A model generated the notes under the pieces. That model did no database searches. It was not told where the DNA came from and saw only the letters and a program-made list of their open reading frames with translations. DNA of 64,000 nucleotides. Source: Eledone cirrhosa (taxonomy: Eukaryota). This document shows positions 12,344 through 12,949 of this stretch, one piece after another. The stretch lies in the NCBI GenBank assembly GCA_964016885.1, contig OZ024744.1, positions 67,518,001-67,582,000 on the forward strand. The letters run 5' to 3'. Each line of letters begins with the position of its first letter. The stretch's first letter is position 1. The position numbers and the translations under genes are program-made.

Positions 12344-12949
12344 TAAATATTTCGTATCCCCAAGGAAATACGGTTTTAGGAAGCCGTAGCTATGTAAACA
12401 CCGGGGGGCTAACGCCCTCTGGTGGTGTCCAGCAGAAGCAAGGGGGACAACCGTCTATGCATTTGAGGCTTAACTGGCCATCGTCAGGACGGTCCCTCCC
12501 ACCGCTTGCGACTGCTGGACTAGAAGACAGGCGAGAATATATACTTTTCTCGTCTGTGTAAATGAGGTGATTAATCTCATTTGCATATGAAGCTGCATAA
12601 CTTGGCTCAACTTATAATAAAAAAGAAATAGGATTTCGCTTCAAGCATAGCTTTATACAATATGTATAAATATTTCGTATCTCCAAGGAAATACGGTTTT
12701 AGGCAGCCGTAGCTATCTTCTAGTCCAGCAGTCGCAAGCGGTGGGAGGGACCGTCCTGACGAAGGCCAGTTAAGCCTGAAATGCATAGACGGTTGTCCCC
12801 CTTGCTTCTGCTGGACATCGCCAGAGGGCGTTAGCCCCCTGGTGTTTGCATAGGTACGGCTTCCTAAAACCGTATTTCCTTGGAGATACGAAATATTTAT
12901 ACATATTGTATAAAGCTATGCTTGAAGCGAAATCCAATTTCTTTTTTAT
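12344..12949. mobile_element. Hammerhead-bearing element: ~1.15 tandem units (period 323 bp) on -, joined at 12716 to an inverted partial unit on +
   Basis: TAAATATTTCGTATC recurs at 12344 and 12667. Segment 12716-12949 is the reverse complement of 12344-12527 and 12620-12716. Confidence 0.85.
12750..12793 (+). ncRNA. Intact minimal type I hammerhead ribozyme; mirror copy on - at 12450-12493 has GAAA>CAAA
   Basis: ACCGTC-CTGACGA-AGGC-CAGTTAA-GCCT-GAAA-TGCA-TA-GACGGT gives a 6-bp helix I, 4-bp helix II, palindromic helix III and an AUA triplet. Confidence 0.88.

Follow-up and report, generated by a model that had tools for sequence, protein, structure and literature searches.

An insert of ~600 non-coding bases with one hammerhead on each strand, at 12344-12949 of the window (the whole stretch of 64,000 nucleotides that was analysed), raises the question of what kind of element it represents and how it was copied into its present site. 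The reading to which we give a probability of roughly 0.7 sees in it one dispersed copy, by now slightly decayed, of an abundant hammerhead repeat of 323 nt. That repeat is likely an animal non-LTR retrozyme, and its insertion here likely the work of the reverse transcriptase and endonuclease of a Penelope-like element (PLE). Such a retrozyme is likely to be a non-autonomous PLE derivative, and the insertion an ageing one. The repeat unit is numbered U1-U323 along the hammerhead-bearing strand, with U1 at 12716 on the minus strand, and the features of the locus are as follows.

12186..12344, no strand: compound microsatellite (AT)40 + (TG)39.5, whose (AC)n strand abuts the 3' end of the left arm
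12344..12716, minus: left arm, 373 nt, the 323-nt unit plus 50 nt of the next
12394..12716, minus: the single complete 323-nt monomer, U1-U323
12344..12393, minus: terminal redundancy, a second U1-U50 copy, 48/50 identical to 12667-12716
12449..12494, minus: decayed hammerhead, with G12 changed (12465) and the base pair at the base of stem II lost (12480)
12531..12616, minus: hairpin-rich spacer U101-U186, left arm only
12713..12716, no strand: head-to-head inversion junction, where two 5'-truncated ends meet
12713..12949, plus: right arm, 0.73 unit, U187-U323 followed by U1-U100
12723..12816, plus: GC-rich stem, long and interrupted by internal loops, that prolongs helix I of the hammerhead (from folding)
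12749..12794, plus: type I hammerhead (from a descriptor scan and folding)
12781..12786, plus: helix III palindrome AUGCAU, one pair and a tetraloop
12787, plus: predicted cleavage site A17, AUA triplet, U261
12900..12949, plus: 'tail' of 50 nt, U51-U100, at the right 3' end only, not the left
12950..12961, no strand: AT-rich right flank

Both 3' ends face outward, the left into (AC)39 and then (AT)40, the right into the short AT-rich stretch. The minus strand holds 1.15 units and one hammerhead, with the plus-strand copy joined to it head-to-head. The 323-nt minus-strand period given in the preliminary description is real (12663-12716 against 12340-12393, 94% over 54 nt), and the tandem multimer proposed with it was overstated: there is one unit plus 50 nt, or 54 nt when the 4 extra nucleotides reaching to 12340 are included, which are microhomology with the AC repeat. 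A long tandem array at 12344-12949 was rejected, as the tandem-repeat listing contains no 323-nt array. The proposal of one hammerhead per unit holds in that a hammerhead is present, but the minus strand has only one, so that 'one per unit' rests on a single unit. An inverted partial unit with an intact ribozyme was also correctly recognised, 12713-12949 containing a complete type I core, as was the loss of G12 from the minus copy, which in addition has a U.U at the base of stem II. Between the arms, 227 of 237 positions are identical, with 10 differences and no gaps, and the bases common to both at the junction amount to 1 nt exactly or 4 nt with one mismatch. No target-site duplication, which in metazoan retrozymes exceeds 4 bp where one is present, is discernible, both ends lying in microsatellite or AT-rich DNA. 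No further copy of the unit was found elsewhere in the 64-kb window, where the next blastn match is 24 nt of AT-rich sequence.

The plus-strand hammerhead combines a helix I of 7 bp (12749-12755 with 12788-12794), a CUGACGA box (12756-12762, with C3 at 12756), a GAAA (12778-12781, with G12 at 12778) and a helix II of 4 bp that begins with an A10.1-U11.1 pair and is closed by a 7-nt loop. In folding, pair probabilities were 0.68-1.0 for helix I and 0.98-1.0 for helix II. In the window 6 motifs fitted the hammerhead descriptor, where 60 block-shuffled windows gave 0.017 on average (maximum 1); Rfam returned no hammerhead at gathering score and none among its 5 matches at E<=10. Applying standard hammerhead numbering to the sequence, we take A17 at 12787 as the position of the predicted cleavage. 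An AUA cleavage triplet is rarer than GUC. Helix III has a pair probability of 0.0 in the monomer and a self-duplex energy of -4.7 kcal/mol, and the AUGCAU palindrome is predicted to pair between two ribozymes instead. Its single pair with a palindromic tetraloop resembles the axolotl HHR_Amex1 and newt satellite hammerheads, which cleave well only as dimers (PMC7229834), and dimer cleavage through a palindromic helix III is the canonical metazoan type I design (PMC4209133, PMC7229834).

The architecture is of this canonical type, for which a helix I of ~6 bp, a helix II of 4 bp and a helix III of 1-2 bp with a palindromic loop are described (PMC4209133): helix I measures 7 bp and helix II 4 bp, and no additional base precedes helix II. 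The minimal PLE hammerhead is described with a helix II of 7-8 bp, a helix I of 4-5 bp and an extra base before helix II (PMC4209133), and the motif at 12749-12794 is not of that kind. It deviates from consensus at 10.1-11.1, where the pair is usually G-C and is described as highly conserved (PMC4209133). By itself the locus cannot release a monomer, because it has one complete core and the partner is both on the other strand and mutated.

The unit has a GC content of 44%, and the longest ATG-initiated ORF on the looped unit is 42 aa. Three overlapping stop-free frames gave no Pfam match, and a coding gene at the locus was rejected on these grounds. Compared with shuffled sequences, the monomer folds with z -4.35 as a linear molecule and, against 60 shuffles, z -5.26 as a circle. 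Folding energy alone cannot pick the functional strand, since the antisense circle is the more stable (-123.0 against -99.5 for the ribozyme strand). The unit had further been called hairpin-rich; the second and third hairpins quoted for it form in the folds, but the first was quoted from the plus strand, is antisense to the left-arm ribozyme and contains an A.C mismatch on the ribozyme strand.

These properties place the unit close to the metazoan non-LTR retrozymes, whose monomers measure 220-245 nt in coral, 350-390 nt in mussel and 330/350 nt in axolotl (Cervera and de la Pena 2020, PMC7229834). It resembles them in monomer size, in a GC content below 50%, in having no ORF, and in a highly paired circular fold that leaves the hammerhead helices free to form (PMC7229834). 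It lies within the 150-450 bp expected of a non-coding retrozyme monomer and carries a canonical type I hammerhead, with the caveats of A10.1-U11.1 and of the Rfam result, and the retrozyme-type unit of the preliminary description is thus upheld. In contrast to metazoan retrozymes, the locus is composed of 1.15 + 0.73 units head-to-head rather than of a same-strand array and shows A10.1-U11.1 and AUA; its inverted copy and its tail are not among the retrozyme features described in the results and discussion of PMC7229834. An active retrozyme is recognised by two consecutive complete hammerheads (bioRxiv 10.64898/2026.07.22.740005). With one complete core on the plus strand and a mutated one on the minus strand, the locus is therefore filed as a dispersed derivative and not as an active retrozyme.

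The manner of insertion points to PLEs. PMC8557442 characterises PLE insertions as partial tandems that in many cases begin with an inverted, 5'-truncated copy, have a tail of 30-40 bp at one end and tend to lie in microsatellites. The locus displays this footprint, with an inverted 5'-truncated copy, a one-sided tail (46-50 nt, longer than typical) and 3' ends in microsatellite or AT-rich DNA, and PLE-type integration, as first proposed, is the likely explanation. In the partial tandem with its inverted copy, the tail at one end only, the microsatellite/AT-rich target and a type I hammerhead upstream of the 3' ends, it is like EN+ PLEs (Penelope/Poseidon, Neptune, Naiad; PMC8557442, PMC11167929, PMC4209133). 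It is unlike them in having no RT/GIY-YIG ORF within 12344-12949, a repeat unit of 323 nt rather than kilobases, a longer tail and a canonical rather than minimal hammerhead. The locus does not qualify as an autonomous PLE. The Chlamys elements include non-coding forms, e.g. MRC1, that depend on PLEs, have pLTRs and insert head-to-tail, but those are green-algal and belong to a clade described as mostly without canonical hammerheads (PMC8557442). Taken together, the insert likely behaves as a metazoan non-LTR retrozyme that owes its mobility to a PLE.

To assess the wider family, the monomer 12394-12716 was compared with four sequencing runs from three studies, among 13 listed as containing it, none of them from RNA, a result uninformative about expression: X1 and X4 (organism A, one study), X5 (organism B, a second study) and X11 (organism A, a third study, RAD raw reads). 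X1 is possibly from the same source as the window itself. Matching records numbered 4,264 contigs in X1, 40 in X4, 2 in X5 and 1,686 reads in X11, the last being locus-biased and reflecting few loci. In X1 the internal depth bins are all at least 55,186, compared with 5-12 for listed single contigs, which suggests thousands of copies, summed contig depth not being a copy number. The figures for substitutions cover 40 of 126 rows, those for loose ends 18 of 347 and those for joints 15 of 24.

In the family, the end of the unit runs on into its start, and G12 and helix II are mostly retained. The joint from monomer end to start is present in 46 X11 reads (11 starts, short side at most 68 nt), 3 X1 contigs and 1 X5 contig, and the loose ends of 312 further X11 reads match the unit's other end. 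Of the 20 listed pieces, 4 (one from X1, two from X4 and one from X5, covering both organisms) read across the U100/U101 join, at which a coding PLE would enter its ORF, and have 31 nt or more to either side of it. None of the listed pieces spans the whole monomer, and no record in X1, X4, X5 or X11 spans two hammerheads. G12 is the family majority base (110,582/110,856 of summed X1 depth, 410/430 X11 reads, 1/1 X5 contig), so that loss of G12 as a family trait is rejected and the left copy lost it after insertion. The letter at the base of stem II is kept in 54,133/61,800 of X1 depth and 265/318 X11 reads; in X4, the core has a 9-nt deletion in its deepest contig (132 of 185.6 depth).

A variant hammerhead in 63 X1 contigs has three of the four helix II pairs changed on both sides, carries G-C at 10.1-11.1 and has an identical loop. 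As regards possible loop 1-loop 2 contacts, loop II is kept in this variant, one of its positions varies in the main family (12472, differing in 19% of X1 depth and in 328/409 X11 reads), and helix I runs on through internal loops. Separately, behind 12662, the unit continues in 107 X11 reads into a sequence that finishes with a short hairpin + CTAG, which we take to resemble a Helitron 3' end, presumably inserted in one family copy. Exact-pattern hammerhead scans found no loci in viral contigs, metagenome contigs or prokaryote genomes, as expected for animal DNA, a result that is uninformative on the family.

The ends and inversions of the locus were then considered against the family. Loose ends at U94-U100 (positions 12617 and 12623) that lead into AT-rich or (AT)n sequence occur in 28+5 X1 contigs and 259+96 X11 reads (among the 18 of 347 rows listed), so that the right arm stops where the family prefers to end. 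These 18 rows do not include the U50 end. At least 5 opposite-strand joints with other breakpoints (one X1 contig each, among the 15 of 24 joints listed) show that inversions recur in the family at other breakpoints. At U30, all three copies at the locus have the letter that is in the minority in X1 (the other letter accounts for 70,619/75,360), which is consistent with one event. The arms differ at 12425/12818, a site that is polymorphic 60:40 in X1, and a single circular template therefore fits less well.

A mechanism can be proposed that begins from this continuous head-to-tail family sequence. Multimers elsewhere would be transcribed, two hammerheads would pair via AUGCAU and cut, and the monomers may ligate to circles, axolotl and mussel retrozyme circles being the model systems (PMC7229834). 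A PLE protein would cut both strands in a microsatellite or AT-rich site, and each 3' end would prime reverse transcription, at two preferred RNA sites, U50 and U100, 50 nt apart. The template was a circle or an uncut multimer, which the present data fit alike; a cleaved linear monomer cannot have served, because both arms cross the predicted cleavage site U261 and more than one unit was copied into the left arm. Two cDNAs would be joined at their 5'-truncated ends by microhomology, producing the head-to-head inversion, and point mutations would later have disabled the left ribozyme.

The anole PLE offers a precedent: its protein cuts and extends both DNA strands and favours AT-rich targets, and reverse transcription starts at two internal RNA sites whose spacing equals the tail (PMC11167929). 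Against the cleavage steps of the scheme, uncut RNA was the main template of the anole PLE (PMC11167929), and 8/9 predicted Xenopus retrozyme dimers showed no cleavage in vitro (bioRxiv 10.64898/2026.07.22.740005), which by analogy counsels caution on the activity of the 323-nt family ribozyme. A bolder version of the scheme, in which the octopod family is a self-cleaving circular RNA copied directly by a PLE into microsatellites and primed from both break ends at two fixed sites, is put forward tentatively and may well prove wrong.

The window contains further head-to-head hammerhead arrangements.

35753-36140, 38752-39275 and 38415-38743: head-to-head hammerhead pairs with palindromic helix III and a long AT-rich helix II (PLE pLTR type)

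The pairs at 35753-36140 and 38752-39275 belong to one family (~93%) and are separate insertions with the same two ends, while the insertions 38752-39275 and 38415-38743 abut each other. In all three pairs the shorter arm stops ~100 nt past the CUGA box, the longer one runs on for another ~85-90 nt, and both finish on AT repeats. Their sequence is unrelated to the 323-mer, and yet they have in common with 12344-12949 a footprint of one short and one long arm on AT repeats. No other hammerhead family in the window resembles the 323-mer (best local scores 16-23), which leaves it with no evident parent there. Solitary hammerhead-like motifs lie by (AT)n at 37848-37993 and 57412-57526, the 57.4-kb motif being 74-78% like the 35.9/38.9-kb hammerhead family. 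At 14181-14302, a 122-nt palindrome between AT repeats has an apparent hammerhead 3' half and a long stable helix III, and a related piece is found at 28905-28943.

The remainder of the window is rich in microsatellites and other repeats. A 98% perfect head-to-head palindrome at 10421-10786 adjoins (AT)35, contains one tRNA-like module per arm (Rfam RF00005, 41 bits) and could be another PLE-mobilised non-coding element. Large local inverted repeats (1526-2561, 59186-60024, 51110-51719, 57208-57746) extend up to 1 kb at 96%, and 33-nt minisatellite arrays occupy 17698-19429 and 13666-13765. Broken LINE-type RT elements are present at 4689-5213, 22187-25504, 31048-34108 and 41958-47304; a single family accounts for both the 22-25 kb and the 31-34 kb element, and the one at 43.9-47.3 kb has endonuclease, RT and zf-RVT domains. 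The ORF of the latter at 45448-47304 matches an Argonauta hians protein with 62% identity, the best match that carries an organism name (rank 4 among the 120 matches listed). This match, the abundance of microsatellites and the character of octopus repeats together suggest an octopod as the likely host. Broken Pif1-helicase frames identified with Pfam at ~6660-7650 on the minus strand are probably a Helitron remnant. Among the 17 of 138 window stop-free frames scanned with Pfam, matches were to LINE RT, endonuclease and Pif1 helicase, and there was no PLE ORF (no GIY-YIG).

Other explanations share much of this evidence. The locus might derive from an internally deleted PLE (a mini-PLE) that inserts by the same mechanism from linear, uncut partial-tandem transcripts, the hammerhead being a passenger and no circle being formed. 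Templates of 1.2-1.3 units fit all the data, cleavage proved dispensable for anole PLE insertion in vitro (PMC11167929), the non-autonomous head-to-tail Chlamys elements exist without canonical hammerheads (PMC8557442), and the A-U pair at 10.1-11.1 would suit a passenger ribozyme. We nevertheless consider it unlikely, because the ribozyme is of the canonical retrozyme design, palindromic helix III included, and not of the minimal PLE type, and because the core is kept in the family majority, with compensatory helix II changes in the variant. A rougher argument is that X1 depth at U104-114 (99,136) equals that at U82-92 (95,367), which is unexpected from 5'-truncated short templates.

Greater doubt attaches to the locus being what is left of a coding PLE that carries tandem 323-nt hammerhead units within its pLTR, only the terminal part having been inserted; the spacer U101-U186 would occupy the place of the ORF in such an element. 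This was the case that the preliminary description had itself named against its reading, and it found no support among the 18 of 347 loose-end rows listed, whose consensuses show no recurring exit into coding-like sequence. The share given for X1 records running on into unlike sequence is 0, and every internal unit join is deeply covered. We regard such a remnant as improbable, even though opposite-strand hammerhead pairs 100-700 bp apart have been interpreted as probable truncated PLEs (PMC4209133), minimal hammerheads occur in tandem in axolotl PLEs (PMC7229834), pairs of other families lie in this same window, and the loose ends seen are those 18 rows only. Still harder to sustain is the idea that a plain satellite monomer was inverted afterwards by a fold-back of the DNA, or only appears inverted through an assembly artefact at the microsatellite. 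Near-perfect palindromes beside (AT)n elsewhere in the window (1526-2561, 10421-10786) would be in keeping with it, as would the absence of the exact junction 12716/12530 from the 15 of 24 joints listed. However, the arms are circularly permuted rather than mirror images and differ at 10/237 sites, the right arm stops at a recurring family end, other copies have other inversion points, and the same short and long ends are repeated in two independent insertions of a different hammerhead family, all of which makes this explanation very improbable.

Animal retrozymes are already described, and their dependence on PLEs has already been argued in print: PMC7229834 drew on the hammerheads common to both, Li, Clavereau and Pollet (2026, bioRxiv 10.64898/2026.07.22.740005) on their co-occurrence and on similarity of pLTRs in vertebrates. 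The latter authors treat non-LTR retrozymes as non-autonomous PLE derivatives and suggest local tandem amplification from a PLE terminus. The present locus agrees with that preprint in the proposed origin, and most families there have at most 7 units, with many solo monomers. It differs in that the evidence is an insertion footprint in a likely octopod family. No report of a cephalopod retrozyme or an octopus hammerhead ribozyme was found in the literature, mostly non-subscription, outside the PMC7229834 supplement with its additional invertebrate examples; in the main text of a 2026 Octopus vulgaris repeat annotation (PMC13282606), 'ribozyme' and 'retrozyme' have 0 occurrences.

What is added is a line of evidence, namely a retrozyme-sized unit with a full PLE insertion footprint that was copied through its own predicted cleavage site, which speaks for a circle or an uncut multimer having been retrotransposed and not only for local tandem expansion. 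The gain is incremental and consists of a candidate retrozyme family in a likely octopod. If direct copying of circles were true, dispersed head-to-head insertions of this kind would be footprints of circle-to-genome retrotransposition and would identify the class of helper, for which there have been only proposals to date.
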